64,000 nucleotides of DNA from positions 34,367-98,366 of the forward strand of contig CAZZBP010000002.1 of assembly GCA_964652755.1 (NCBI GenBank). The letters run 5' to 3'. Under the pieces are notes generated by a model that worked only from the letters and a program-made list of their open reading frames with translations, made no database searches and was not told the DNA's origin. Of this stretch, positions 12,109 to 26,453 are shown piece by piece; positions within the stretch are counted from its first letter, which is position 1; the number at the start of each line of letters is the position of its first letter. Both the position numbers and the translations under genes were made by a program. The DNA comes from an uncultured Dehalococcoidia bacterium. GTDB lineage: Bacteria > Chloroflexota > Dehalococcoidia > Lucifugimonadales > UBA826.

Positions 12109-13656
12109 ATGAATATAGCTTGCTTGCTTATAACTCATCTGGGAATCAAAGATGAGCTGCGCCGCCACCCTGATCTTGTGGGTAGAAACATTATTCTATA
12201 TAGAGCAGATTCATGTGCTCGCTCTGCGAAAACTCTTGGCAGATCTATTAAGTCAGTGGTTTTCGATGTTTCAAGTGGAGTTAGTGGAATACCTGTTGGA
12301 ATGCCTCTCTCAGCTGCGTTGTCTAAGTCTCCTGACTCTATAGTTTTACAGGCTGATCTAGAAAGATACAGAAAAGTCTTTGCCAGAATCATATCTGATT
12401 TAAGGAGGATAGCCCCTGCAGTGCAAGGCGCGGGCTTAGGTAGGGTATATGTGGATATGACAGGGTTGGAGTATATGTATGGTGGAGAGGCAAAGGTGGT
12501 TACCCGTATGCTGGAAACTGCTCCTGCTCTTTTTCATCCTCGCGTTGGTATTGCAAAGGGTAAGTTTCCTGCATATGTAGCTGCTTTATCCAGCCATCCG
12601 GGGAGGGCGACGAAGATTCCAGATAATCCCACAGGAACGACGGATTTCCTAGCTTCATTCCCAGTGGATGTGCTGCCTGTGGAGTGGCAGATGATAATGG
12701 AATTTCATCGATTTGCCATTCATACAATGGGTGAACTTGCTGCGCAAGATTTGGGTAATCTACAGACTAGGTTTGGTCCTGTGGGCCGAAAATCATGGGA
12801 ACTGGCACGTGGAATAGATCCAGATCGTGTAATTGAATTGAAGAAAAATGATGTACTTGATGAGTATGTCACACTCCCGTTTGCCTCTGCTTCGAGGGAA
12901 GTGTTATTCACAGCAATTGATGCCCTTCTCCGAAGGGCATACACGCGTCCAGGACTGAAAGGCAAATATGCACTCAAGTTTTTACTAAAATGCACAGTTG
13001 TAGGCTCTACACCCTGGTCTCGGGAGATTGTGATAAATGAGGCTGCGCCTAGCGCTTCAGCAGCGTCTTTTTCTATTCGTAGTGTTCTTTCTGATATAGA
13101 ACTTCCTGGACTCATTGAAGATGTGGCTCTCAGTGTTTCTGGATTCATAGGTGAACATGGCATACAGGCTCGTGCATTTAAAGATGTGCGGGAGCAGATT
13201 CAGAATAGATTGAACAGGCTTGCTAAGGTAGACCGACATCTGCAGGCGAAAACTGGAGGCAAGAAATCACTCTACCGAGTTGTGGAGGTAGATCCTATTC
13301 ATCCCGTTCCAGAGATGCGTTTTGTACAAGTTTCAGTAGATCCATTGTCTGTTGAATCGGTACGTTCCATTAATATGCCAGAGGAGGTGGAGATCGGAGA
13401 GTCGAAGGGTATTCCAGTGTCTGTGGCTCTTCCAGGTAAGGGAAGTATTCCTATTCGGGCCCGGGCTGTAGACATGTGGAAGATTGACCTCTGGTGGATG
13501 CACAGGCCTGTCCGACGAGTTTACTACGTTCTAAAGCTTGATGGTTCTGGTCCCCTAACTGTGTTCAGAGATACTTTGGGAGAGAGAGGGCTGATCACTG
13601 AAGAACATAGAGAAACCCCTGTCACGGGACATCGTTGGTACCGACAGGATTATTAA
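12109..13656 (+). CDS. imuB: ImuB-like Y-family DNA polymerase homolog (probably catalytically inactive)
   Basis: It shows Y-family palm/fingers-like similarity (..VYVDMTG.., ..IA..KF.A..A.., HTMGELA helix-hairpin-helix). The N-terminus reads IACLLITHLGIK instead of the DMDAFY-type catalytic acidic motif. It lies immediately upstream of dnaE2 and is translationally coupled to it. Confidence 0.75.
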   Translation: MNIACLLITHLGIKDELRRHPDLVGRNIILYRADSCARSAKTLGRSIKSVVFDVSSGVSGIPVGMPLSAALSKSPDSIVLQADLERYRKVFARIISDLRRIAPAVQGAGLGRVYVDMTGLEYMYGGEAKVVTRMLETAPALFHPRVGIAKGKFPAYVAALSSHPGRATKIPDNPTGTTDFLASFPVDVLPVEWQMIMEFHRFAIHTMGELAAQDLGNLQTRFGPVGRKSWELARGIDPDRVIELKKNDVLDEYVTLPFASASREVLFTAIDALLRRAYTRPGLKGKYALKFLLKCTVVGSTPWSREIVINEAAPSASAASFSIRSVLSDIELPGLIEDVALSVSGFIGEHGIQARAFKDVREQIQNRLNRLAKVDRHLQAKTGGKKSLYRVVEVDPIHPVPEMRFVQVSVDPLSVESVRSINMPEEVEIGESKGIPVSVALPGKGSIPIRARAVDMWKIDLWWMHRPVRRVYYVLKLDGSGPLTVFRDTLGERGLITEEHRETPVTGHRWYRQDY

Positions 13657-16600
13657 TGTCTTTGCATATGTCTCATAGTAGCTATACTTCACCTTCCTAT
13701 GTAGAGCTTCATGCACATAGTTTCTACTCATTTGGTGAAGGAGCATCTCACACTTATGAACTGCTCGGCCGGGCAGCTGAACTGGGTTATTCGGCCATGG
13801 GTCTCACTGATCACAACATGTGTGGTTCACTCGAGTTTGCGCGTCAGGCGAAGAGCTTGGGGATACAGCCAATCACTGGTGGGGAACTCACTCTAATAGA
13901 TGGCTCACATGTCGTCATGCTGGCAGAGAATAGGCGGGGTTACTCAAATATATCTCGTCTGTTTACTTTGGCTAACAGCTGGGACCGCAAAGACCCCCGG
14001 CTTGATCCGAAATACTTATCTGAGTATTCGGAAGGTATTGTCCTTCTCACGGGATGCAGGTCTGGTACGGTGCCCAATCTCGTGTCACAAGGAAAAGTGG
14101 AGAAGGCTCGGGATACACTACGATGCTATGTCGACTGGTTCGGGGCGGACTCCGTTTTCGTTGAACTGAGTCGTAATTTGGTCTATGGCGATACTGAACG
14201 TATACGTACACTTACTTCCGTTGCATCAGATGTTGGACTTCCTGTCGTGGCGACAAACAACGCACACTACCATATCCCAGAGCGTCATCGCTTGCAGGAC
14301 GCGCTGGTGGCAGTAAGTCATAACTGTACTATTGATAAAGTTGTTCATTACCTTAAATACAACAGCGAATTTCACCTCAAGTCCAAAACACAGATGAAAT
14401 ACCTTTTTCGGCACAGTCAGGAGGCGTTAGAAAATACTTTAAAGATAGCTGACCGATGTACTTTCGACCTATCTTCTGACTTGGGCTATACACTTCCTTC
14501 CCCTGACGTTCCGGAAGGATATACTCCTCTGACATATCTGCGCAGACTCTGTTACGAAGCAGCGCAACGTCGCTACGGGACGATTAATGATTTAGTTGAG
14601 GCGCGATTAACAGAAGAACTCCGCCTGATTGAAAAGCATGGTCTGGCGGGATTCATGCTACTTTATCGTGAGATAGCTCTACTTGCACGTGAAATCATGG
14701 TTGAGATGGGGACTGTAAACCAGGAGGAACCCCTTGAGTGGCGTCCTCCCGGAAGGGGGCGTGGTTCTTCAGTAGCGATGCTTACTGGTTACCTAATCGG
14801 AATATCCCATGTTGATCCTCTTTTGTACGATCTCACGTTAGAAAGATTCCTGCCTGATGATTTGCGTGTTCTGCCGGATATCGATCTCGATTTTCCTCGT
14901 TCTCTGCGTGATTCACTCATTGCTCGTATACATCAACACTTCGGTGCAGAGTTTGCCGTTCTGACTGGAATGATCACTACATACCGAGCTAAGGGAGTTG
15001 TGGCGGATTTAGGTAAGGCTTTCGGTATTCCTGATGAAGATTTAAGAAGGTTATCTAAGCAAATACATCAACACGATGCATCACGTCTACGTGAGGAGAT
15101 GATGTCTTTACCTGAATTCTCCAATCGAGTGGATCTTCCAGGCTGGCGTGATCTACTTGAGCTAGCGCCCCAGTTAGAAGGGGCTCCTAAGGGTTTAGGG
15201 CAGCATGTAGGAGGAATGATTCTGAGTTCCTCCCCGATCCCAGACATGGTTCCATGTCGTGAGGGAGCTATTAAGGGTCGCAATATAATTGACTGGGATA
15301 AGGAAAGTGTGGGCTACGCCGGATTTGCCAAGATAGATATATTGTCTCTGCCAGTTCTTGACCAATTAGACGAAGCCATTTCTTTAGTTGAGAAGCGCAC
15401 GGATAAGTGTGTAGATCTGAGTCGTATTGATCCGGAGGATTCCAGGGTGTACGACATGATAAATCAAGGACATTCCCGCGGAGTTTTTTTACTCCAATCA
15501 CCCGCTCAACTGAAAATGGGCCAGCGGTTGATGTCTCGTAATCTACAGGATCTGGCTTATCAAGTTGCTTTAATAAGACCTGGTGTAGGTATTCAGGGAA
15601 GTGGCGTATCTGAATTCATAGAACGATACCGACACAACGTTAAGTGGGAGTACGATCATCCCCTTGAGAAACGTGCTTTAGAGCGTGGTTACGGTGTAAT
15701 CATCTGGCAAGAACAGGTCGTGCAGCTTATATCTGATGTATCCGGTATGAGCCAGGCGGATGCTGACGAGATGCGAAGGGCATTTGCCCGACATAACAAT
15801 GAGAAGGTAATTACTGCGTATTGGGAGCGGTTTCGTGAAGGTGCTGTTGATCGAGGTGTGGATGAACACATCGCACGAAAAATATTCGCTAAGATAAATG
15901 GACATTATATGTTTCCTGAGTCGCACTCACATGCATTTGCAGTATCTGCATACCAGGCTGCCTGGATGAAGAGGTACTATCCGTTAGAGTTCTTCGTCGG
16001 GCTCATGAATAACCAGCCCATGGGCTTTTATCCCATGGAAGCAATAAAGCAGGATGCTCGCCGATTCGGGGTGAAATTTCTTAACCCATGCGTCAATCTC
16101 AGCGGGTCTCAATGTGAAATTTTGGATAATTCCCTACTGATTGGCCTGGAATTTGTAAAGAATCTTGGCAAGCGATCTGCTCAATCTATTATCGAGGAGC
16201 GTTCTTCTCATGGTTTGTTCGTGTCAGTGGGTGACTTTGTCCGTAGAGTGTCTATAGGACTTGATGCTATTGAGACCCTCATATTAGCGGGGGCATTCGA
16301 CTTTATATCCCGTAACCGTAGGGTTGCACTGTGGGAGGCTGGAATCTATCCCCATCCGTTAAAAGGACAGCGGCCATTACCTATGGAAATGGATATCAGT
16401 GTGCCGGAGTTAAAGGGGTTCACTCCGTATGAGGAAATGTTAGGTGAATATCGCTCTATGGGTATATATCCTGCGGGGCTTATTATGCTGTTTGTCCGAA
16501 GCAATCTGCCTTGTGGTGTTTCTAGGGCGTCAGATATTTATTCTATGAACGATAAAGAACGGGTGTCTGTGGCCGGATGGGCAATAGCCAGACAACATCC

Positions 16601-16829
16601 AAGAGGCCAGCATGGGACTGTATTTGTGACCGTAGAAGATGAAACGGCAGACGTTCAACTAATTGTCTGGCCGCAAATATTCAATCGCTTTAAACACCTT
16701 CTCAAAGCTCCACTGCTGCTGGCACATGGGGCGGTATCACGTTGGGACGGTACTACAAATGTGATTGTTTCTAGTTTAGAAAGTATACGGTCAGAGACAA
16801 CCCTACCGGCGGTACACGACTGGCATTGA
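13656..16829 (+). CDS. dnaE2: Error-prone DNA polymerase III alpha-subunit paralog DnaE2
   Basis: It has the PHP domain YVELHAHSFYSFGEGAS..GLTDHN, the pol III alpha core and a C-terminal OB fold. At about 1057 aa it has DnaE2-like length. The ATG at 13656 overlaps the imuB TAA (TAATG). The ORF track start at 13635 is an in-frame GTG further upstream. Confidence 0.9.
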   Translation: MSLHMSHSSYTSPSYVELHAHSFYSFGEGASHTYELLGRAAELGYSAMGLTDHNMCGSLEFARQAKSLGIQPITGGELTLIDGSHVVMLAENRRGYSNISRLFTLANSWDRKDPRLDPKYLSEYSEGIVLLTGCRSGTVPNLVSQGKVEKARDTLRCYVDWFGADSVFVELSRNLVYGDTERIRTLTSVASDVGLPVVATNNAHYHIPERHRLQDALVAVSHNCTIDKVVHYLKYNSEFHLKSKTQMKYLFRHSQEALENTLKIADRCTFDLSSDLGYTLPSPDVPEGYTPLTYLRRLCYEAAQRRYGTINDLVEARLTEELRLIEKHGLAGFMLLYREIALLAREIMVEMGTVNQEEPLEWRPPGRGRGSSVAMLTGYLIGISHVDPLLYDLTLERFLPDDLRVLPDIDLDFPRSLRDSLIARIHQHFGAEFAVLTGMITTYRAKGVVADLGKAFGIPDEDLRRLSKQIHQHDASRLREEMMSLPEFSNRVDLPGWRDLLELAPQLEGAPKGLGQHVGGMILSSSPIPDMVPCREGAIKGRNIIDWDKESVGYAGFAKIDILSLPVLDQLDEAISLVEKRTDKCVDLSRIDPEDSRVYDMINQGHSRGVFLLQSPAQLKMGQRLMSRNLQDLAYQVALIRPGVGIQGSGVSEFIERYRHNVKWEYDHPLEKRALERGYGVIIWQEQVVQLISDVSGMSQADADEMRRAFARHNNEKVITAYWERFREGAVDRGVDEHIARKIFAKINGHYMFPESHSHAFAVSAYQAAWMKRYYPLEFFVGLMNNQPMGFYPMEAIKQDARRFGVKFLNPCVNLSGSQCEILDNSLLIGLEFVKNLGKRSAQSIIEERSSHGLFVSVGDFVRRVSIGLDAIETLILAGAFDFISRNRRVALWEAGIYPHPLKGQRPLPMEMDISVPELKGFTPYEEMLGEYRSMGIYPAGLIMLFVRSNLPCGVSRASDIYSMNDKERVSVAGWAIARQHPRGQHGTVFVTVEDETADVQLIVWPQIFNRFKHLLKAPLLLAHGAVSRWDGTTNVIVSSLESIRSETTLPAVHDWH

Positions 16830-16865
16830 AATATGCAGACCTCACTCAAATCTGTAGCGCTTTAT

Positions 16866-17489
16866 CTATCCTGTCGCCAAAAGCTCCCTGACTATGTTCC
16901 TCTCTAGCTCAAGGCCCAACATGGTAGTTAATTCAGTTCTACCATGGTCACCGACAGTGACAACAAAGGAAACTCCCAGCAGTCTACCAATTCGGAAATC
17001 AATAACTGTCGTTGACAATATTCCGTCTTCTCCATCTTGGACGGCGCGTATGCCGATCGCCCTATCATAGAAGTCGTCTATCTCAAGCTCTTCCACAGCG
17101 ACGATACTTTGGTTTTCACCAACTTCACTGCCGACGTTGTCTTTGAATTGTTTGACAAATACATCAGTCATCCAGGAAGCGGCACGACTTTCATCTTTAA
17201 ACAAGTGAACTACTGTTGCAGCGACTATGTCTGATCCGTCTTCGTGCCGCGGTATAGCTGATGGCGACGCAAACTCTCTTAGATAACCGGTGATTCGCCC
17301 CGCTTTTTCGTAGTTTTCTTCTGTATTCCCTGGGAAACCGTGGGATGCCATAGTTTTATTGTTGAGACTACTTTCACGCAGCAATGAAAACCCTGATAGT
17401 TCGTCGGGTAGGCCATTCAATCCGAGCGTCATGTTACTCAGAGATTGTTCGTTTATCTCATATGTTGCCTGCGCTATGGAGTTGGCCAT
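16866..17489 (-). CDS. Hypothetical protein (207 aa, no recognised domain)
   Basis: A long ORF with coding-like composition. I recognised no motif, signal peptide or TM segment. Confidence 0.45.
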   Translation of the reverse strand: MANSIAQATYEINEQSLSNMTLGLNGLPDELSGFSLLRESSLNNKTMASHGFPGNTEENYEKAGRITGYLREFASPSAIPRHEDGSDIVAATVVHLFKDESRAASWMTDVFVKQFKDNVGSEVGENQSIVAVEELEIDDFYDRAIGIRAVQDGEDGILSTTVIDFRIGRLLGVSFVVTVGDHGRTELTTMLGLELERNIVRELLATG

Positions 17490-17762
17490 GGAATCACTTC
17501 CTCGCTCCAGCAGTTTGATTGGTACATATATTCAGTATAAACCAGACTTATCCATATAGAACCAAACATGCCTTTGACTGAATGGCAACTTAGCAAGATG
17601 TGATGCAGTGAGTTTGCCTGAGATTGTGGAAGTAAGAAGTTCTTAAAATGGTAAAATCTGCTATCAAGGTTAACCCCAAGATCTCCATCGAAAGGACTGT
17701 ACCCTCTGCCAGCAAATTTATTTAAACATATTCATACATCAATTCTGGTCACAGCCGTACTG

Positions 17763-18362
17763 ATGATGCTAGTTGGTTCTATTGTAGGCTACAGTATCCA
17801 AAGAGAAGTTCTCATAGAGACGGTATCTGAATCTTACTTATCTAAACCAATCAAAAAGGAATTCGGATTGGCGGGCTCTTCCTCGGCTCCAGGTAGCACT
17901 GGAAAATCTCGCACTGGACACACAGCTTTCCTTGTGAAAACCCATCAAAGCCACCGCGTGATTGTGATAGGCGGAAAAAGTAATTCAGGGTTCGTTAGAG
18001 AAGTTGAGATTTATTTACCTGAATATGGCAGATGGAAGCTTAGAGCCGAGCTTCCATCTGCTAAATCTGGACATTTGTCGGCTGTTATCGCGGGCGAACG
18101 AATACTGCTGTCGGGAGAGGGAGATGAATCTGGTGTTTCAGCGATGTCCTACTTGTATGATCCCATGTCTGACATTTGGAGAGAAGCTTCGCATTTGAAA
18201 TCTGGTGAGGTCTATGTAACCGGCGGATTTCGACTGAATCCGGTTGACTCCATTGAGGTATATCGACGAGGAGAGGGTGGAGGGTCCACCGCAGAATCGG
18301 TGGTTAGTGATCAGAAGCTCAAGCTTCCGGATCTGTTTGCATCGCGAAGAGTGTCGTATTGA
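17763..18362 (+). CDS. Kelch-repeat-like protein, probably N-terminally membrane anchored
   Basis: It has two to three Kelch-like units (VIVIGGKSN..VREVEIYLPEYGRWK..P..KSGH; ..YLYDPMSDIWRE..; VYVTGGF..SIEVY). Upstream in-frame codons (ILVTAVLMMLVGSIVGYSI) look like a TM helix, so the true start may be a non-ATG codon upstream. The stop overlaps the next gene start (TTGA). Confidence 0.5.
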   Translation: MMLVGSIVGYSIQREVLIETVSESYLSKPIKKEFGLAGSSSAPGSTGKSRTGHTAFLVKTHQSHRVIVIGGKSNSGFVREVEIYLPEYGRWKLRAELPSAKSGHLSAVIAGERILLSGEGDESGVSAMSYLYDPMSDIWREASHLKSGEVYVTGGFRLNPVDSIEVYRRGEGGGSTAESVVSDQKLKLPDLFASRRVSY

Positions 18363-21300
18363 AGTCCAGCAACGCAGTATCAGTAATCAGGCTCGTATCT
18401 GGGCGAATGCGGAGCGATATGAGGTTGATCGCTGCCATATTCTCGGGAATGTTGGTTGCAATCACGCTTATTTCTGGAATGCCTATCTATCTTGCAACTT
18501 TAGAGAAACAAAGCATTCAGGGAGCCATCGAATCAGCAGTAGAAAAAAAATCTCTGTCGCACCTCGATCTGAATATATTCCTTCCGTTCTTACCGCTCGA
18601 ATCCGAAAGGATCAATGAAGCAGATTCTGCTGTGTCAGATTCTCTGGGTCCAACTTTCGGTACCGTGGTTACTGCCACCCAAAGGCGTATTAAAACTTCT
18701 ATTTTTTCTTTTTCGCTAACGCCGACGAAAACCCTCCTCTCTTCCAACGGCTCACCCACTCCGGTGGATGTGATATCTGATGATTTTTTGTCTAAGTGTC
18801 TGGCAGCATCATTGTGCAACACTGATAGTGCAGAAGAGAACGGAATCTTGCACGATGGCTTCTTTCAGCATCTGACTTCACTGGACGATCATGTCATATA
18901 TGTAGAGGGGGTATCCCCCATCTACAAACCCCTCAGATTTGTAGATGGCCCGATGGTAGAAGCTTCCATCTTTACTGAACTAGCCGATTATTTCTTAATA
19001 GATGTTGGTGATGTAATTGTTGTGACGTCCTCGATGGATAGCAGGGTCCATATTGGTGTCAAGGTTGTGGGTATCTTCAGACCGACCGATGAAACAGCTG
19101 CCATTTGGCAGGGTGACAGCAAAAGCTTCACTTATCCCTACCCTCCTTCAGAAGATGACAGTGTCACCAGGCCCAAGGATCTTCAACCATATTTGGCCAT
19201 GTTTATCCCTGAAAAATCTTTGACTCAGGGTATTGGATCGGCTTATGCTGGCTCGTTTTCAAGCGCTACATGGTCGAGCCATGTCAACTTTGAAAAATTT
19301 AAGGAATGGTCAAGGCCAGAAATTGAAGCTGCCATAGATTTCCTTGATGTGAAAATCGGTAAGGAATTACCTGGCTCAGAACTTAGATCAGGGATACAAA
19401 TAATTCTTTACCAACTCGGTAGGCAAAATTTTCTGTCCAACGTCCCATTATTGCTTCTCATGTCGGTGTTAGCAGTCTCACTGATATATTTTTTGTTTAT
19501 GCTGACTAATTACTTAGTACCGGGTAGGGAGTCGGATATTTCACTGTTGAAAAGCAGGGGAACATCCACTCTGGGTATTCTACGCCAGTACTCGGTAGAG
19601 GGGCTATTATTAACGGTTGTTGCTTCGGCTTTGGCACCATTCATTGCTATGGGATTAATCGCGACGTTGGGATATCTTCCCTATTTTGACAATATTAGCG
19701 ATGGAGGGATGCTTCCCGTCCGACTCTCCTCCCTGCCTTTTATTGTATCTGCCGGTGCTGGAGTACTCTGCTTTTTGGTATTCATAACGCCCGTAGTATT
19801 AAGTTCAAGAACAAGCTTGATAGCCCGGCGAATTTCGATGTCACGACCACCTATAACCCCATTTGTTCAACGATACTATCTCGACATTTTGTTCCTTACT
19901 GTAGCCGGAATTCTCTACTGGGAAATGAAGGCTCGAGGTCAAATATCTTCTGGCGGCCTTTTCGGGCAGGAGGGGGTTAACGAAGCACTTCTCGTAGCTC
20001 CCGTATTGCTCCTAGTTGCTGTCGCAATGCTCTTCTTCAGGGGTTTTCCGTTGCTTGTTAGGTACCTTGCTGGAGAATCTCATGCACTTGTTACCCTAAT
20101 AGGATTCGTATCTGTTTTGATACTTCTGGGTTCTTGTGCTTGGGGAATTTTGAACGACGAAATAGCAGAGTGGTTTATCCCAGCCATATCGTCGGCGATA
20201 TTTGCCTCAGGATTATATCTTGTTAGAAAGACTTCTAATAAAAAATTCAATTTTCTTGCGCTGTTTCTATTGGCTTCTGGAATAGGGCTGCTTTGGATGT
20301 ATCTTCCAAACGATATGCCTCCCGTTTCGTTAAGCGGACTTTGGGGTGCTTCAATCGTCGTGCCAGGAATCATATTCTTTTTTTTACTAAGGTATGCAGC
20401 ACGATTCACCCCGGCCTGGATTGCATTAACACTTTGGCACATGTCGAGAAACCCACTTCAATATAGCTGGTTGGTTTTGTTGTTGGTTTTGGCCAGCGGA
20501 GTCGCTGTTCTGGCGACCACGCTAGGTGCAACATTGGAGCGAAGTCACAAAGATAGGGTCAATTATCGTATCGCTGAGGACGTTAGGATAGAGGAGGCAT
20601 GGGGAGGGTTCCTATCAAATGTTGATTCAATAGAGGAATTAGAGGATCAATATGTTCGACTGGAAGGAGTTTCGAATTTCACGGCTGCGTTAAGAAGGGA
20701 AGGGACTGTTGGAAGTGGATCGGGCGCATTTCCTTTCCATCTATTGGCGGTTGAAGTTGGAGATTTCTCTCCTTGGGCCCGACCCGATTTCTCGAGAAAA
20801 CCAATGGCTATTATACTCGAAATGCTTAACCCCGGAGAGCCGGACGATCTCATACTTCTCCCAAATGATGCAACAGAGGTAGGTATGTACACAAAGCCTA
20901 TGGGAGCCTATCCTCTTATTTCCATATGGCTCATAGTGGAAGACGCTACCGGACACCGTCAAATTATCACATTGGGAAGCTCTGGGTTGAGGACTTCCGG
21001 CTGGACTAGACGATCAGTGCCTATCAACAAACGATTAGTCCAACCCCTTAGGATAGTGTCGATTCAGATAAGCGAGCCCGGATTTGGCGCTACAGGGACA
21101 CCGGGTTCGATTTTTATAGACGACGTCTTTGCCGTGAAAGATGGTGCCGATGTCGTTATAGAGAGTTTTGAGAGCCATGATATCTGGACGGTCATACCAA
21201 CTTCATCAGTGGATTCAGATTCTTTGTCCCTATCCGATTCAGCTGCAGTAAGCGGTAGTTTTGGGGCTGTTTTCGAATTTGGTAAAGAGGCAAATCATGG

Positions 21301-22126
21301 AGTCAGGGGAATTTATCTGCCTGAGTATGATTCAGCACTTCGGGTTATAGCAAGTGACTCGTTTCTCTCGTCCACAGGTCTTAACGTAGGCAGTTACTCA
21401 CTAGTGGAGATATCTGGAGTACTAGTGATTGTTCACATCGTCGATAGCGTTATCTACTTCCCTACATTGGACCCATTAGATAAAGGGTTTCTTCTAACAG
21501 ACTTAAACGCTCTCACATCTCATCTGTCCTCTGTAAACCCTCGAACAAAAAATACTCCAAACGAAATTTTTCTTCAATTGTCAGAGTTAGGAGAAACGAA
21601 AGAGTTAGCTAAGGAATTGACCACGATTACAGGTACATCAGGAGAAGTGGCTGAAAAGCGAATGATGTTGGCGGAAGTTCAGAACGATCCTCTGATATCA
21701 GCCGGCTGGAAGGCATTGACTCTAGTTTCTCTTATGATCTCATTGTTTATGACCACAATGGGTTATTTAGTCTACGTTGTGTTCCTTTCAGATAGGGCTA
21801 GGTCAGAGATGGGGTCGTTGAGATCACTCGGGCTTTCTCGTATCCAAACGGTTGGACTTGTAGCACTAGAGCACGCCGTTATAGTGACCATGGGAATTGG
21901 AATCGGTACATGGACGGGTTTTCAGATGACTAAACTCATCGTTGATTCTGTAGCAATTTCCGAGAGCGGCGGTGTGGTTTTGCCTCCCCCAATATTGGCG
22001 ACGGACTGGGCCGTACTTGGGATCACAGCAGGGTTATTTACACTCGTTTTCGTTGTTTCAGTAGCACTCTTGGGGAAATACCTCTTCAGTATGAATCTTG
22101 GCATTCTTGCAAGGTCAGAGGAGTGA
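18359..22126 (+). CDS. Giant FtsX/MacB-type ABC permease-family protein with two FtsX modules (1255 aa)
   Basis: There are two FtsX-type 3-4 TM modules (..LVPGRESDISLLKSRGTSTLGILRQYSVEG.. and ..LSDRARSEMGSLRSLGLSRIQTVGLVALEH..). Each is preceded by a large non-hydrophobic (extracytoplasmic) domain, and extra TM helices lie between them. Confidence 0.8.
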   Translation: MKSSNAVSVIRLVSGRMRSDMRLIAAIFSGMLVAITLISGMPIYLATLEKQSIQGAIESAVEKKSLSHLDLNIFLPFLPLESERINEADSAVSDSLGPTFGTVVTATQRRIKTSIFSFSLTPTKTLLSSNGSPTPVDVISDDFLSKCLAASLCNTDSAEENGILHDGFFQHLTSLDDHVIYVEGVSPIYKPLRFVDGPMVEASIFTELADYFLIDVGDVIVVTSSMDSRVHIGVKVVGIFRPTDETAAIWQGDSKSFTYPYPPSEDDSVTRPKDLQPYLAMFIPEKSLTQGIGSAYAGSFSSATWSSHVNFEKFKEWSRPEIEAAIDFLDVKIGKELPGSELRSGIQIILYQLGRQNFLSNVPLLLLMSVLAVSLIYFLFMLTNYLVPGRESDISLLKSRGTSTLGILRQYSVEGLLLTVVASALAPFIAMGLIATLGYLPYFDNISDGGMLPVRLSSLPFIVSAGAGVLCFLVFITPVVLSSRTSLIARRISMSRPPITPFVQRYYLDILFLTVAGILYWEMKARGQISSGGLFGQEGVNEALLVAPVLLLVAVAMLFFRGFPLLVRYLAGESHALVTLIGFVSVLILLGSCAWGILNDEIAEWFIPAISSAIFASGLYLVRKTSNKKFNFLALFLLASGIGLLWMYLPNDMPPVSLSGLWGASIVVPGIIFFFLLRYAARFTPAWIALTLWHMSRNPLQYSWLVLLLVLASGVAVLATTLGATLERSHKDRVNYRIAEDVRIEEAWGGFLSNVDSIEELEDQYVRLEGVSNFTAALRREGTVGSGSGAFPFHLLAVEVGDFSPWARPDFSRKPMAIILEMLNPGEPDDLILLPNDATEVGMYTKPMGAYPLISIWLIVEDATGHRQIITLGSSGLRTSGWTRRSVPINKRLVQPLRIVSIQISEPGFGATGTPGSIFIDDVFAVKDGADVVIESFESHDIWTVIPTSSVDSDSLSLSDSAAVSGSFGAVFEFGKEANHGVRGIYLPEYDSALRVIASDSFLSSTGLNVGSYSLVEISGVLVIVHIVDSVIYFPTLDPLDKGFLLTDLNALTSHLSSVNPRTKNTPNEIFLQLSELGETKELAKELTTITGTSGEVAEKRMMLAEVQNDPLISAGWKALTLVSLMISLFMTTMGYLVYVVFLSDRARSEMGSLRSLGLSRIQTVGLVALEHAVIVTMGIGIGTWTGFQMTKLIVDSVAISESGGVVLPPPILATDWAVLGITAGLFTLVFVVSVALLGKYLFSMNLGILARSEE

Positions 22127-22130
22127 TTCA

Positions 22131-25100
22131 TTGCTGATCCAATCCGTCGAAAGACTGGCGACAGCTTGGCCAATGGTTATAAAACGAAGCCTAGCCAATT
22201 GGAAGTTATTTTCCTCAGTGGTTCTTGGAGTTCTTCTGGCCTCAGCGGTTATGGCCGGTACCGTAGTTTTCTTTGATTCATTGAGAGACATAGCCTTGGA
22301 TAATGCTTTGGCACAAATTGATGATCTAGATGCGGACATTCTCATGCAGGCTGAAAAGGGTCCTACGAATAGACAGGAATACGGGAAAGTTTCTGATCGG
22401 GTGAATTCGGTTACTGAAGGGTTGTTAGCCCCTTATTTGAATAAGGCCACGGTAGCAGGAAAGTCCTCAACGTTTTTTCTTACGTCGCCAGGAGATGAAA
22501 GTAGTGCCGGACAAGATAACTCCCGTGCTTTCGTAGCTTACGTCCCTGACCTCGAAGACAAAATCCAGATAATAGATGGAGTTGGAATGCCGTCGGCTGT
22601 AGGTATGGCTTCTTCAGATGGCATATTGATCCTTGAAGCAATGGCTCCGGTTCACGAAGCAGAGATATTGAACGCTTCGGTGGGATCAAGGTTCTCATTA
22701 GTTCCCTACTGGGATGACGCTTTGCCTTATGTCATCGTGGAAATAGTCGGTTTATTCGAGCGCGCGGCGCCCGCGGATCCTTTTTGGATCATGACTGACA
22801 GGGTGTTGATGGCATCTGCGGGATCAAGTTTTAAGACCTTGCCTCTATATGTTACGAAGTCGGCTCACACGGATATTCTAGGTGCGGCCCTACCCGATAT
22901 GGTGAGCACTTACGGCTGGCATCTGGATATAGACCTAGAAAAGATCAATTCTTCAAATGCTGTTGATGCAAAGGAAAATATTAGGTACGCCAACCGACTT
23001 CTGGGTTCCGAGCTAAATCGGTATCTGATGAAAACTCAGATAGACACCGCCCTTGAAAAGTATGACACTCGGTTGCTTTTCACTAAGCTACAAATGTTTG
23101 TAGTTCTAATCATGATTGCTCTAGTAGTTCTCTACTACGTCGTCACTTTGTCGTCACTTGTAGTTGAGCAACGACGGTTCGAAGTTTCCCAACTCCGCAG
23201 CAGGGGGGCAAGCGCATCACAGATCTTGGCGGTTTTCGTACTCGAAGGTGGAACGCTTTCGATACTCGCCGCCATTTTGGGGCCTTTTATTGCAGCAGGC
23301 TCTATAGGGTTACTTGGGTTCACTCCCGCCTTCTCAGGACTAAGTGACGGGGAATTTTTACCTGTGAGGGTGACAAATGCAGCTTTCGGTATGAGCGTAC
23401 TTGGTGCACTTCTAAGCTTTGCTGCACTTATGATTCCGGCTTACCAGGCTTCCCGGATATCTGTTACTGCGCAACGAACTGAGTCAAACAGGCCAACTCA
23501 GAAGTCTTTTGTCCAGCGTTACTACGTGGATGTGGGCTTGCTACTAGTCGGGATTTTCCTTTTCCGACAACTAACTGAACAGGGGTCAATGGCAGCAAGG
23601 GGAATTCTGGGGGAGGTTGCGGTGAATCAATTGCTCCTAGCAGTGCCGGCCGTGATATTGATAGCCGGAGCAATGGTGCTTCTACGTTTGTTCCCGTTGG
23701 TAATGAATATAATTAGTCGCGTTTTTTCGTCACGTATTCCAGCTGGTGTAGTACTGGCAATATGGCAGATGTCGAGGAATCCAGGTAACTATGCCAGGTT
23801 GTCACTTCTTCTTGTGTTGATGACTGGGCTAGGGATTTTTGCTGCCAGTTTCGGTGGCACTTTGGACCGTAGTTCTCAAGACAGAGTGCTTTACAACATA
23901 GGTTCTGATATCAGACTAGAATCCGTATCGATAAATAGGATGGGTGAGAGCAGATCGATCACGAAAAGCTACCAAGATTTGGATGGTATAAAGACGGTAA
24001 GTCCAGTTTTGCGTAGGTCCGGATCTGATCTTACAAAAAGATTCAGTAATGAGTCTATAACGTTTCTTGGTGTTGATCCTTCTACTTTTTCAGATGTAGC
24101 GATATATAGGGACGATTTTTCAAAGGCGAGCCTAGAGCAGCTACTTTCATCTCTTGAGCATGAAAGTAGTCCATCAGGTATTCCATTGCCCGAAAACATA
24201 CGGGCCCTAGGTGTTCTTGTGAAGGCGGACAGAGCGAAGTCCAGCGTAGTGCTTGTTGCTAGGCTTCGGGATGCTAACAAGCGTTATTTTACCTACGAAC
24301 TTGGGACCCTAGATTCCACTGATTGGACCCTTAAAGAGGTGGAGCTTTTCGATAGCAGAAGACCCTGGCGGCAGCTATTTCCAGAAAGACCACTAAGTCT
24401 TATGTCGGTCAGTATCGTTGAGACAAATACCCAGGGGGAGCTCGCTCCGGGATCCATTCTTTTGGACAGTATTAAGGCTCGGAGTTCAACTGGCGAGGTG
24501 GAGAATATTGAGACTTTCAGTAACGTTGATGAGTGGCACGTGTTGAAAAGTGTTCGTGACGCGGAAAAGGACAGGATAGAACTGTCGTCGGTAAGTGCAA
24601 AGGGTGATGGGTCGCTCCTATTTGCCTGGTCTGGAGGTAGTCCTATTACTCCAAGGGGGGTGTACCCTGGAGGAGACCCACGCCCGATGCCGGCTTTGGC
24701 TTCAGCATCGTTTTTAAGGGAGTCTGGGCATTCAATTGGTGACAACTTAACGATTTCTTTGGGAGGCAGACGTTCCTCGGTAAAAATCACAGACAGCTTT
24801 GAATATTTTCCAACGTTGAATACTATTGAAGATAAATTCCTCCTCGTTGGGCTTGAACCTGCTCTAACAAATACGAATATCGGGGCACTGATAGGTGAAA
24901 TCACACCAAATGAGATATGGCTTTCTGTTGAGCCTGGCTTGTCAGAATACGAATGGTCCGATCTTGTCGTTTCCTTGGAAAATGAGACTCCTTTCCCCAT
25001 TGCAAATGTATTAGATACACGAGAGGCTCTTTCTAAGGCAAACATTGATCCATTGGTAAAAGCTGGTTGGAAGGCACTTCTTTTTATTGCATTTGGAGCA

Positions 25101-25490
25101 ATACTTTTGCTGAGCGCAATTGGATTTATGTCTCACGCATATGTTTCTTTCAGAAACAGAGAGATTCAGTTTGCGTTAATGCGTACCATAGGATTGTCTG
25201 TGAACCAGCTAATATCTCTTATCTGGCTGGAACAGGCTCTGATTATTATCGTTGGGATGTCCCTGGGCACATGGATGGGAGCTAGGTTAGGGGCTGTCAT
25301 AATGCCTTTTCTCGGGAGTGATGATCAAGGGGCACAGGTTGTTCCTCCCTTTATCATGCAAGTTGATTGGGCGAATCTGTTAACTACATATTTGGGGATG
25401 GTTGTCGTGTTTACGCTTGTGATAATAGGAATTATATTCTTGATAAGGAGGATGTCTCTCAATAGAGCGCTTAGACTGGGGGAGATGTGA
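22131..25490 (+). CDS. Second giant FtsX/MacB-type permease-family protein, paralog of the preceding gene
   Basis: It has the same architecture (..VEQRRFEVSQLRSRGASASQILAVFVLEG.. and ..FRNREIQFALMRTIGLSVNQLISLIWLEQ..). Blocks shared with the upstream paralog include FVQRYY and W.MSRNP. I prefer TTG 22131, which has a GAGGAG RBS 7 nt upstream. The alternative start is ATG 22173, and the ORF track starts at 22098. Confidence 0.8.
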   Translation: MLIQSVERLATAWPMVIKRSLANWKLFSSVVLGVLLASAVMAGTVVFFDSLRDIALDNALAQIDDLDADILMQAEKGPTNRQEYGKVSDRVNSVTEGLLAPYLNKATVAGKSSTFFLTSPGDESSAGQDNSRAFVAYVPDLEDKIQIIDGVGMPSAVGMASSDGILILEAMAPVHEAEILNASVGSRFSLVPYWDDALPYVIVEIVGLFERAAPADPFWIMTDRVLMASAGSSFKTLPLYVTKSAHTDILGAALPDMVSTYGWHLDIDLEKINSSNAVDAKENIRYANRLLGSELNRYLMKTQIDTALEKYDTRLLFTKLQMFVVLIMIALVVLYYVVTLSSLVVEQRRFEVSQLRSRGASASQILAVFVLEGGTLSILAAILGPFIAAGSIGLLGFTPAFSGLSDGEFLPVRVTNAAFGMSVLGALLSFAALMIPAYQASRISVTAQRTESNRPTQKSFVQRYYVDVGLLLVGIFLFRQLTEQGSMAARGILGEVAVNQLLLAVPAVILIAGAMVLLRLFPLVMNIISRVFSSRIPAGVVLAIWQMSRNPGNYARLSLLLVLMTGLGIFAASFGGTLDRSSQDRVLYNIGSDIRLESVSINRMGESRSITKSYQDLDGIKTVSPVLRRSGSDLTKRFSNESITFLGVDPSTFSDVAIYRDDFSKASLEQLLSSLEHESSPSGIPLPENIRALGVLVKADRAKSSVVLVARLRDANKRYFTYELGTLDSTDWTLKEVELFDSRRPWRQLFPERPLSLMSVSIVETNTQGELAPGSILLDSIKARSSTGEVENIETFSNVDEWHVLKSVRDAEKDRIELSSVSAKGDGSLLFAWSGGSPITPRGVYPGGDPRPMPALASASFLRESGHSIGDNLTISLGGRRSSVKITDSFEYFPTLNTIEDKFLLVGLEPALTNTNIGALIGEITPNEIWLSVEPGLSEYEWSDLVVSLENETPFPIANVLDTREALSKANIDPLVKAGWKALLFIAFGAILLLSAIGFMSHAYVSFRNREIQFALMRTIGLSVNQLISLIWLEQALIIIVGMSLGTWMGARLGAVIMPFLGSDDQGAQVVPPFIMQVDWANLLTTYLGMVVVFTLVIIGIIFLIRRMSLNRALRLGEM

Positions 25491-25520
25491 TTCTGAGTGG
25501 TGGCATTACCGTTAAATAAT

Positions 25521-26453
25521 TTATATTCCTAGTAACATTCCCCCTAAATTTCGACGTCCCAATGAGAATTCTGTTGCGGATACAGCTTTCTTGCCTTCTG
25601 CCTGAACAGTTTTCAAAGAGATGTTTCCTTCCCCCGTGCCAACAAGTATTTCGTTACCTAAATGTACCTGTCCCGGTTCTAAGACTAATGTTTGTTTTTC
25701 ATATCCTGGTAACGCCTCAAGTATTTTTAGAGGCCTACCATTCATGTAAGTGAATGTTCCGGGCCAAGGGTGGAACGCTCTGATTGATCTTAAAATCGAT
25801 GTTGAAGAGTCTCGCCAATCAATCCTTCCGTCCTCTCTTGTCAGTCGCTTTGTCGTTGTTGATTTAAGATCGTCCTGAGGGTTAGGGTCTATATCTCCTG
25901 ATTTCCACGAGTCCAAAGTCTTTAACAATAGACTTGCCCCCTTTCGAAATAGGCGATCTGTGAGTTCGCCGCATTTCTCATTAGCCCCGATGGAAACCTT
26001 CTCTTGTGCTAAGACAGGACCGGTGTCTAGGCCCTTGTCTAGTAACATTACTGTCACCCCTGTTGTATCTTCGCCTTTCAAAATGGAAGTAGCCACAGGT
26101 GAGGCCCCACGGTATTTAGGCAATATAGAAGGATGTATGTTCAGGCATCCAAGGGGAAATCCTTCTATTATTTGTGAGGGAAGAAGAACCCCGTAGGCGG
26201 CGATTATAGCTGCTTCGGCTTCAAGTGACATTAAATGCTCAAACGACAACTCGTTTCGGAAAGTTTGAGGTTGTACGACCGGTATACCATGGAAATCGGC
26301 CCGTTCTTTCACAGGAGTAGAGATTATTTTCCTGCCTCTCCCGGAGCGATTATCTGGCTTCGTATATACGGAGGCTACGTCGTGACCAGACTCAACAAGC
26401 AAATCAAGTGTGGGAACAGCAAACCTCGGTGTTCCCATGAAAACCAATCTCAC
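25521..26453 (-). CDS. fmt: Methionyl-tRNA formyltransferase
   Basis: MRLVFMGTPRFAVPTL..L..SGH.V..VYT.PD...GRG.. and ..LNIHPS.LP.YRG..P.. motifs are present. 310 aa. Confidence 0.95.
   Translation of the reverse strand: MRLVFMGTPRFAVPTLDLLVESGHDVASVYTKPDNRSGRGRKIISTPVKERADFHGIPVVQPQTFRNELSFEHLMSLEAEAAIIAAYGVLLPSQIIEGFPLGCLNIHPSILPKYRGASPVATSILKGEDTTGVTVMLLDKGLDTGPVLAQEKVSIGANEKCGELTDRLFRKGASLLLKTLDSWKSGDIDPNPQDDLKSTTTKRLTREDGRIDWRDSSTSILRSIRAFHPWPGTFTYMNGRPLKILEALPGYEKQTLVLEPGQVHLGNEILVGTGEGNISLKTVQAEGKKAVSATEFSLGRRNLGGMLLGI

Follow-up and report, generated by a model that had tools for sequence, protein, structure and literature searches.

Type VII ATP-binding cassette (ABC) systems, among them MacAB, LolCDE, FtsEX, BceAB and YbbAP, are defined by the action of their ectodomains together with an extracytoplasmic partner, and each example characterised to date has revealed a new envelope function. 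The permease YbbP consists of two fused MacB-like permease units plus two linker transmembrane (TM) segments, displays two periplasmic domains, and binds two YbbA ATPases via two coupling helices, with TesA as its periplasmic partner (PMC12646458; PMC5985334). Structures of the YbbAP-TesA system are PDB 9GE6/9GE7/9GE8. Here we describe a locus of this kind found in a 64,000-nucleotide stretch of DNA (hereafter the window) on a 101-kb contig of a marine SAR202 bacterium (Chloroflexota, Dehalococcoidia), the assembly of which spans 2.08 Mb in 91 contigs and is 88% complete. In the dark ocean, SAR202 rank among the most abundant groups of bacteria. The locus holds a Kelch-like open reading frame (ORF) followed by two large permease genes, permA and permB. 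We consider it quite likely that this locus is the membrane half of a four-gene Type VII (MacB/FtsX, YbbP-like) system, with a pair of ATPases encoded in trans on another contig of the same assembly, C85.

PermA and PermB are paralogs, with 29% identity over 570 aa (E 1e-58) and 26% over 408 aa (E 2e-42), and the sequence blocks FVQRYY.D and W.MSRNP..Y are common to both, as an earlier note on this DNA had pointed out. The FtsX domain (PF02687) was detected twice in each permease (39.3 and 62.2 bits against a Pfam cut-off of 25.5). A genome scan placed these stretches at window positions 19457-19804 and 21731-22096 in permA, and at 23100-23462 and 25086-25457 in permB. Each permease also carries two ectodomains, of ~270-320 aa and ~400 aa, as indicated by hydropathy and, for PermB, by an AlphaFold model. 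PermB displays 10 TMs (4+2+4), with a first extracytoplasmic domain (ECD1) at aa 49-321 (~270 aa) and a second (ECD2) at aa 576-981 (~405 aa). For PermA, hydropathy gives the order TM1, ECD1 (~320 aa), TM2-4, linker TMs plus an insertion, ECD2 (~400 aa) and 3 TMs. This insertion of ~110 aa, with ~4 extra predicted TMs (aa 572-684, window 20072-20410), follows the linker helices and precedes the second FtsX unit, and is absent from PermB and YbbP. Ortholog lengths of 1212-1263 aa suggest that it is conserved. Both permeases are under purifying selection, with ratios of nonsynonymous to synonymous substitution rates (dN/dS) of 0.15-0.19 against a species of the same genus (0.19 for permA).

An AlphaFold2 model of PermB was obtained from 49 homologues, with a mean predicted local distance difference test score (pLDDT) of 80.6. 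Its top full-length matches in the PDB, as given by Foldseek, were to Escherichia coli YbbP in YbbAP (9ge6_A, E 8.7e-18, and 9ge7_A), followed by MacB, LolCDE, BceAB, HrtB and YtrF; the Foldseek probability was 1.0 for MacB, LolC/E, HrtB and YtrF. Meanwhile, a sequence profile search of the PDB matched only the TM2-4 region of LolC/LolF, so that fold comparison was needed to reach YbbP. When ECD2 was compared alone, Foldseek returned weak matches to the periplasmic domains of LolE/LolC/MacB (E 4e-3 to 3e-2, probability 0.77-1.0), and no fold match was better than E 3.5e-3. An inserted beta-sandwich of ~110 aa within ECD2 bears a weak Foldseek resemblance to PLAT/C2/CBM folds, which is a lead only. 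From these weak ECD2 matches, the ectodomains are largely without assignment. Taken together, the FtsX profile, hydropathy, the model and the Foldseek matches bear out the claim of mechanotransmitter-like permeases of the MacB/FtsX type (Type VII), whose ectodomains are unusually large and mostly unassigned. The suggestion that the system is uncharacterised also stands, as a search of the literature on FtsX in SAR202 and on Type VII ABC systems with Kelch proteins found no paper describing it. It is an uncharacterised Type VII ABC variant, so far seen in SAR202/Dehalococcoidia.

The likeness to YbbAP lies in the single-chain permease with two MacB-like 4-TM units, two linker TMs and two ectodomains, in the separate ATPases of the LolD/MacB class and, presumably, in the use of an extracytoplasmic partner protein, which is TesA in YbbAP. 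The plan of YbbP, with 10 TMs (4+2+4) and two ectodomains, was found in PermB, and PermA has the same plan with ~4 additional TMs. Nevertheless, PermB shares 12% sequence identity with YbbP, is ~320 residues longer, and carries the extra beta-sandwich in ECD2. There are two tandem paralogous permeases here and one there. Likewise, two distinct ATPase genes, always in tandem, take the place of the one adjacent homodimeric YbbA, and they are unlinked to the permeases in this genome and apparently shared among paralogous permease pairs. The candidate partner is also of another kind, namely a Kelch-repeat lipoprotein (degenerate in this genome) and not an esterase such as TesA. We looked for a TesA-type (SGNH) hydrolase, and no hydrolase family was matched among the ten flanking genes scanned.

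Other Type VII systems were also compared. MacB, LolCDE and FtsEX share with this locus the FtsX-domain 4-TM unit, the large ectodomain between TM1 and TM2, and an ATPase of the LolD/MacB/FtsE class, but their units are separate chains that form homo- or heterodimers, whereas here they are fused. No gene for an adaptor (MacA/HlyD), LolA or an EnvC-like partner was found in the locus. The LolC/E model TIGR02212 scored 34.9 bits against a cut-off of 362, over one FtsX module, and LolCDE comprises two separate 4-TM permeases and one LolD. BceAB of Firmicutes has a 10-TM fused permease and separate ATPases, and is a structural match (7tcg_A, E 6.5e-9). The only ectodomain of BceB lies between TM7 and TM8, and BceB has the BceRS two-component system as a partner (PMC5985334). 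The permeases described here have two ectodomains instead, and no two-component-system family was matched among the ten flanking genes scanned. As for the separation of motor and permeases, MsiK/MsmK of sugar importers provide a precedent in which several permease systems are powered by one ATPase locus that lies apart from their genes. These are Type I importers with a homodimeric ATPase, whereas here a two-gene ATPase pair would serve Type VII fused permeases.

A tandem ATPase pair on another contig

The earlier note had stressed that no ABC ATPase accompanies the permeases. This is correct for the locus, as no ABC_tran domain was found on the 101-kb contig, but it does not extend to the genome, in which a profile scan detected 30 ABC_tran matches. 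Three ATPases only, mutually 43-48% identical, belong to the LolD/MacB/FtsE/YbbA class. Two of them, ATPase294 and ATPase246, form a tandem pair on contig C85, between three acyl-CoA dehydrogenase (ACAD) genes and a short-chain dehydrogenase/reductase (SDR) gene, with no permease adjoining. Their best NCBIfam matches were LolD, YbbA, MacB and FtsE, and both sequences retain intact Walker A, Q-loop, LSGGEQQR, Walker B-Glu and H-loop motifs. The FtsX modules of the assembly were limited to the four in the window and one on contig C7. The third ATPase of this class lies next to the latter, within a self-contained MacAB-like unit (C7:22548-26963) made up of an N-terminally anchored 814-aa protein, the ATPase and a 405-aa FtsX permease.

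ATPase294 also displays a C-terminal extension of ~60 residues, which ATPase246 lacks. This extension is conserved in 58 orthologs (EEF.LVDG.GRVQIPRE...I.ERARV), including those of loci L028-L040 and L122-L135. Its sequence looks like an AbrB/SpoVT-type swapped-hairpin segment, and it may be a regulatory or dimerisation domain. No Pfam family was matched by the extension or by the 119-aa gene beside the ATPases.

The gene order in relatives links the two sites. In ten loci from nine other families of the same order, the two permease genes are followed directly by ATPase294 and then ATPase246, with identities to the C85 pair of 49-73%. At an 11th locus (L032), only the 294-type ATPase was seen. 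Among 80 loci of GTDB species genomes, ~31 have both ATPases directly downstream of permB. Within the family of the window, the permease site always reads dnaE2-hyp207-(Kelch gene or nothing)-permA-permB-fmt, without ATPases, and the ATPase site always reads three ACAD genes, ATPase294, ATPase246, a ~120-aa gene and the SDR gene (seven genomes, five genera). The earlier note had taken the permeases to be orphans, and had named beforehand a dedicated ATPase consistently adjacent in relatives as the observation on which that reading would fall. Such a pair lies directly 3' of permB in other families of the order, and its orthologs are those on C85; the orphan reading has thus been abandoned.

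Only permeases and ATPases recur in the operon-type loci, in which we found no conserved fifth gene; the other clusters were overlapping spurious ORFs. The tandem permease pair itself is conserved through the family and the order, with a match in 29 of 41 relatives, and relatives at E < 1e-40 occur in 75 of the 301 Chloroflexota genomes sampled. All records found were metagenome-assembled genomes or single-cell assemblies, with no isolate among them, so that conserved SAR202 envelope machines of this kind can at present be inferred from sequence alone.

Permeases and ATPases are also distributed together. Among the 41 relatives, 27 have an ATPase294 ortholog as well as the permease pair and 12 have neither, while the ATPase occurred without permeases in none and permeases without the ATPase in two (Fisher p = 1e-8, uncorrected for phylogeny). 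One of these two genomes is 55% complete, and the other has a single match at 24% identity. Where a high-quality genome of the family is without the system, the joint loss shows at the two unlinked syntenic sites. The ACAD gene abuts the SDR gene, with no ATPases between them, in G007, G012 and G005; hyp207 abuts fmt, with no permeases between them, in G007, G018 and G008, although the overall pattern is less clean in G008. G005 and G012 belong to genus g5, in which ~1.2 kb with no permease match separates hyp207 from fmt.

Ten further SAR202 genomes encode exactly one ortholog of ATPase294, or of the ATPase pair, together with the one or two permease loci found in each. In six of these genomes no permease gene lies within 9 kb of the ATPase pair, and in the single-chromosome assemblies among the six the pair is 0.4-2 Mb away from the permease loci. 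Another genome (G027) holds three permease pairs and one ATPase pair. Genus g6 (G006) displays yet another arrangement, with no permease pair at the hyp207-fmt site and the ATPase pair kept at the ACAD site. A very divergent tandem pair of 1339 and 1113 aa (21-23% identity), with no adjacent ATPases, is encoded in the same genome (L149, G006:C6:38112-45477) and looks like another client of the same motor.

Decay of the Kelch gene

The product of the first gene had been described as a membrane-anchored beta-propeller, a description that does not apply to the ORF in this genome. The 199-aa product has one significant Pfam Kelch_1 stretch (1.4e-8), corresponding to ~two blades, hydropathy predicted no TM segment in it, and a Tyr occupies the place of the lipobox Cys. 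Kelch propellers close with six or seven blades, a number that this ORF does not reach; judged from its sequence, it cannot form a closed propeller on its own.

The corresponding gene of the congener (contig L041, 90% nucleotide identity) codes for 748 aa with 10 Kelch_4 stretches, that is, at least 10 repeats, a count taken from this one full-length protein scanned. At type II loci (defined below) of other genera, the upstream gene codes for a 750-830-aa protein with a lipoprotein signal, e.g., ...LLAFLATSC in L021. Compared with the L041 gene, the window lacks 1647 bp, or 549 codons, in frame: blastn aligned window 16804-18199 with L041 3000-4395, and window 18192-18700 with L041 6035-6543. 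The lipobox has changed from ISGC in the congener to IVGY in the window. The 199-aa allele, always with Tyr at the position of the lipobox Cys, was found in four independent assemblies, which indicates that it is real and fixed. We also considered that the deletion could be an assembly artefact; this is unlikely, given a microhomology of merely 5-8 bp and the recurrence of the allele.

The remnant evolves under relaxed constraint, with a dN/dS of 0.58 against the homologous parts of the congener gene, compared with 0.07-0.17 for hyp207 and fmt and 0.18 for full-length Kelch genes of another genus. The deletion, the lost lipobox Cys and this ratio together identify the small ORF as a decaying remnant. 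As the deletion is in frame and the overlap with the permA start is retained, the ORF may be kept mainly because translation of permA is coupled to it.

The proposed association between the Kelch gene and the permeases held in part. A Kelch gene is adjacent in 17 of the 23 permA rows of the clade to which the window belongs, but several genera of the same family show no such synteny (L022-L024, L033). In these genera, g9 and g10, the permease pair is intact and a Kelch gene is absent altogether.

Immediately upstream of the first ATG of the Kelch gene, and in frame with it, both the window (17700-17765) and L041 (3895-3960) code for a stretch that resembles the n- and h-regions of a lipoprotein signal, KHIHTSI(L/R)VTAVLM... 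No ATG, GTG or TTG lies ahead of this stretch in either sequence. The true start of the gene may be a non-canonical codon, or the signal peptide may have been mis-called.

Proposed history and mechanism, and alternative explanations

We reconstructed a FastTree tree of 171 permA and permB sequences, in which the first split separates permA from permB. The window permA falls in a clade of 23 rows (support 100) and its permB in a clade of 35 rows (support 99). Neither clade includes any ATPase-adjacent locus, and 17 of 23 and 16 of 35 rows, respectively, are Kelch-adjacent; meanwhile, the sister clades of both are mostly ATPase-adjacent. The simplest history runs in three steps, beginning with a four-gene operon (type I) as the ancestral state; a duplicated permease pair (type II) would then have gained the Kelch lipoprotein gene while using the same ATPases; finally, the streamlined family of the window, with genomes of ~2 Mb, would have lost the type I permeases and kept the ATPase pair. 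Several genomes hold one type I and one type II locus with a single ATPase pair. At locus L125, an ACAD ortholog occurs together with permA, permB and the ATPase pair, in that order, which is consistent with an intermediate state before the family of the window lost its type I permeases. Between type I and type II permB, identity is 0.57-0.69 in the coupling-helix loops and 0.35 in the ectodomains, a contrast compatible with a shared motor and diverged outer functions.

PermA and PermB each combine two 4-TM FtsX units in a fused pseudo-dimer with two large extracytoplasmic domains. Based on these findings, we postulate that the two C85 ATPases would dock as a heterodimer on the two non-equivalent coupling helices of each fused permease, and ATP binding and hydrolysis would be relayed across the membrane to move the ectodomains (mechanotransmission), after the model of YbbAP, MacB and LolCDE. 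One such motor would serve every permease pair of the cell. Where intact, the Kelch lipoprotein is the likely extracytoplasmic partner of the type II pair. The work performed would be the extraction or handing over of a hydrophobic, lipid-linked or envelope-bound molecule on the outer side of the membrane; by analogy with YbbAP-TesA, LolCDE and BceAB, a hydrophobic or lipid-linked envelope molecule would be the most likely substrate class. The data themselves establish the fold class and fused topology, the paralogy, the class and integrity of the ATPase pair, its position beside the permeases in sister lineages, the co-distribution and joint loss, the purifying selection on both permeases and the decay of the Kelch gene. 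In this scheme we infer the physical pairing, its stoichiometry, the direction of the work and the substrate.

Several points weigh against a membrane half powered by the C85 pair. The link between these ATPases and the permeases is drawn here from genomic data, and the heterodimer stoichiometry solely from the fact that the two ATPase genes invariably occur in tandem. Since the assembly is 88% complete, another permease partner of the C85 ATPases could be missing from it. Joint absence within the family could mean as few as one to four loss events, and the co-distribution carries no correction for phylogeny. The support values of the FastTree tree are local ones, and the tree has several long branches. 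The argument from the coupling loops is weak because coupling helices are conserved across the whole superfamily anyway. With regard to a missing partner, an additional fused permease does occur in other genomes of the family, albeit together with its own ATPase.

This extra permease, of 1146 aa, was considered as the real client of the C85-type ATPases and rejected, as it has its own adjacent C7-type ATPase and tblastn finds none in the present assembly. At the two loci concerned, L147 (G004:C23:1-4221) and L148, a C7-type ATPase and the 1146-aa fused double-FtsX permease form a YbbAP-like two-gene unit.

Three other explanations must be set against the motor encoded in trans. It is very improbable that the permeases are true orphans, forming an envelope scaffold, passive or energised in some other way, that works without any ABC ATPase. 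The absence of ABC_tran domains from the contig would agree with this, as would the fact that the whole clade of permease pairs never has adjacent ATPase genes; however, the genome does encode the orthologous ATPase pair, which adjoins the permeases in sister lineages. In none of the 41 relatives was this pair seen without such permeases, and the two are lost jointly; furthermore, conservation extends to the coupling-helix loops, with invariant residues. The C7 ATPase belongs to the same LolD/MacB class as the C85 ATPases, to which it is 43-48% identical, and could therefore be imagined to power the permeases while the C85 pair serves something else. We hold this to be highly improbable: the C7 ATPase sits in its own three-gene unit, the C85-type pair and not the C7-type gene adjoins permA-permB in other families, the permease pair and the C85-type pair are lost together, and no other FtsX partner for the C85 pair was found in the assembly.

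The locus might also be disappearing from this species, in which case the permeases, their Kelch partner destroyed, would be functionless relics. The deletion of 549 codons, the missing lipobox Cys and the dN/dS of 0.58 of the Kelch remnant point in this direction, and so does the loss of the whole system in several genera of the family. We nevertheless find this explanation improbable. The permA and permB ORFs are intact (1255 and 1119 aa) and evolve at a dN/dS of 0.15-0.19, and the ATPase pair is intact in all its catalytic motifs. Moreover, g9 and g10, the genera without a Kelch gene, still have intact permease pairs, so that permeases persist without Kelch.

For the window itself, a split system with its ATPase pair on C85 is mostly a deflationary result, because it explains the striking absence of an ATPase. 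For annotation, the lesson is that an 'orphan' ABC permease should not be called ATPase-less until co-distribution has been examined across whole genomes. What is unusual in the SAR202 system is the occurrence of two tandem fused permeases, of two ATPase genes that stay together whether they are retained, relocated or lost, of ATPases that seemingly serve several permease pairs in trans, and of a candidate Kelch lipoprotein partner. A broader proposal, which we put forward tentatively and consider somewhat doubtful, is that SAR202 harbour an undescribed Type VII class, in which one heterodimeric ATPase pair would be shared in trans by up to three giant YbbP-like permease pairs. One clade of these would use a cell-surface Kelch-repeat lipoprotein, a kind of partner that no ABC system is known to have, and the envelope or hydrophobic substrate would be tied to the deep-ocean lifestyle.

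Layout of the locus

The coordinates of the features discussed above and of their neighbours are collected in Table 1.

Table 1. Features of the permease locus (window positions) and ATPase genes on contigs C85 and C7
Feature	Position	Strand	Description
imuB-like (IMS family) gene and dnaE2	12109-16829		Cassette directly upstream
hyp207	16866-17489	-	Unassigned gene, 207 aa, divergent orientation
Kelch-like ORF	17763..18362	+	199 aa; remnant, through in-frame deletion, of a ~748-aa multi-repeat Kelch lipoprotein gene
Deletion junction of the Kelch remnant	18192..18199	.	Short microhomology TTGAA; blastn against L041
permA	18359..22126	+	1255 aa, fused double-FtsX (Type VII ABC) permease
Shine-Dalgarno-like GAGGAG	22119..22124	+	6 nt ahead of the permB TTG start; read directly from the sequence
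permB	22131..25490	+	1119 aa, YbbP-like fused double-FtsX permease; best start TTG 22131
permB ECD2	23856..25073	+	Possible core like the Porter and Sabre subdomains of YbbP ectodomains, with an inserted all-beta domain; domain model pLDDT 86.3
ATPase294	C85:2335-3219	-	294 aa, LolD/MacB-type
ATPase246	C85:1584-2324	-	246 aa, LolD/MacB-type
C7 ATPase	C7:25009-25749		MacB-type

The descriptive part of the earlier note proved correct, as the ORFs, the FtsX modules, the paralogy and the ATPase-free contig were all confirmed. The Kelch ORF, permA and permB run in one direction, as seen in the ORF listing and translations. The Kelch stop and the TTG start of permA overlap as TTGA in the sequence, and the N-terminal frame of permA read from this overlapping TTG is conserved in the congener. 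Between permA and permB, GAGGAG is followed by the TGA stop, a gap of 4 nt and the TTG at 22131. Scans of 17400-25700 for promoters and terminators gave fewer matches than in shuffled sequence and were thus uninformative.

The locus is flanked upstream by imuB-dnaE2 and the 207-aa gene, and downstream by fmt, an MMPL-type protein gene and mutS2. No Pfam family was matched by hyp207, which is unusually conserved, with 65-85% identity family-wide. It is not part of the permease system, since it still adjoins fmt in genomes without permeases. The imuB-dnaE2 cassette is syntenic across the family of the window.

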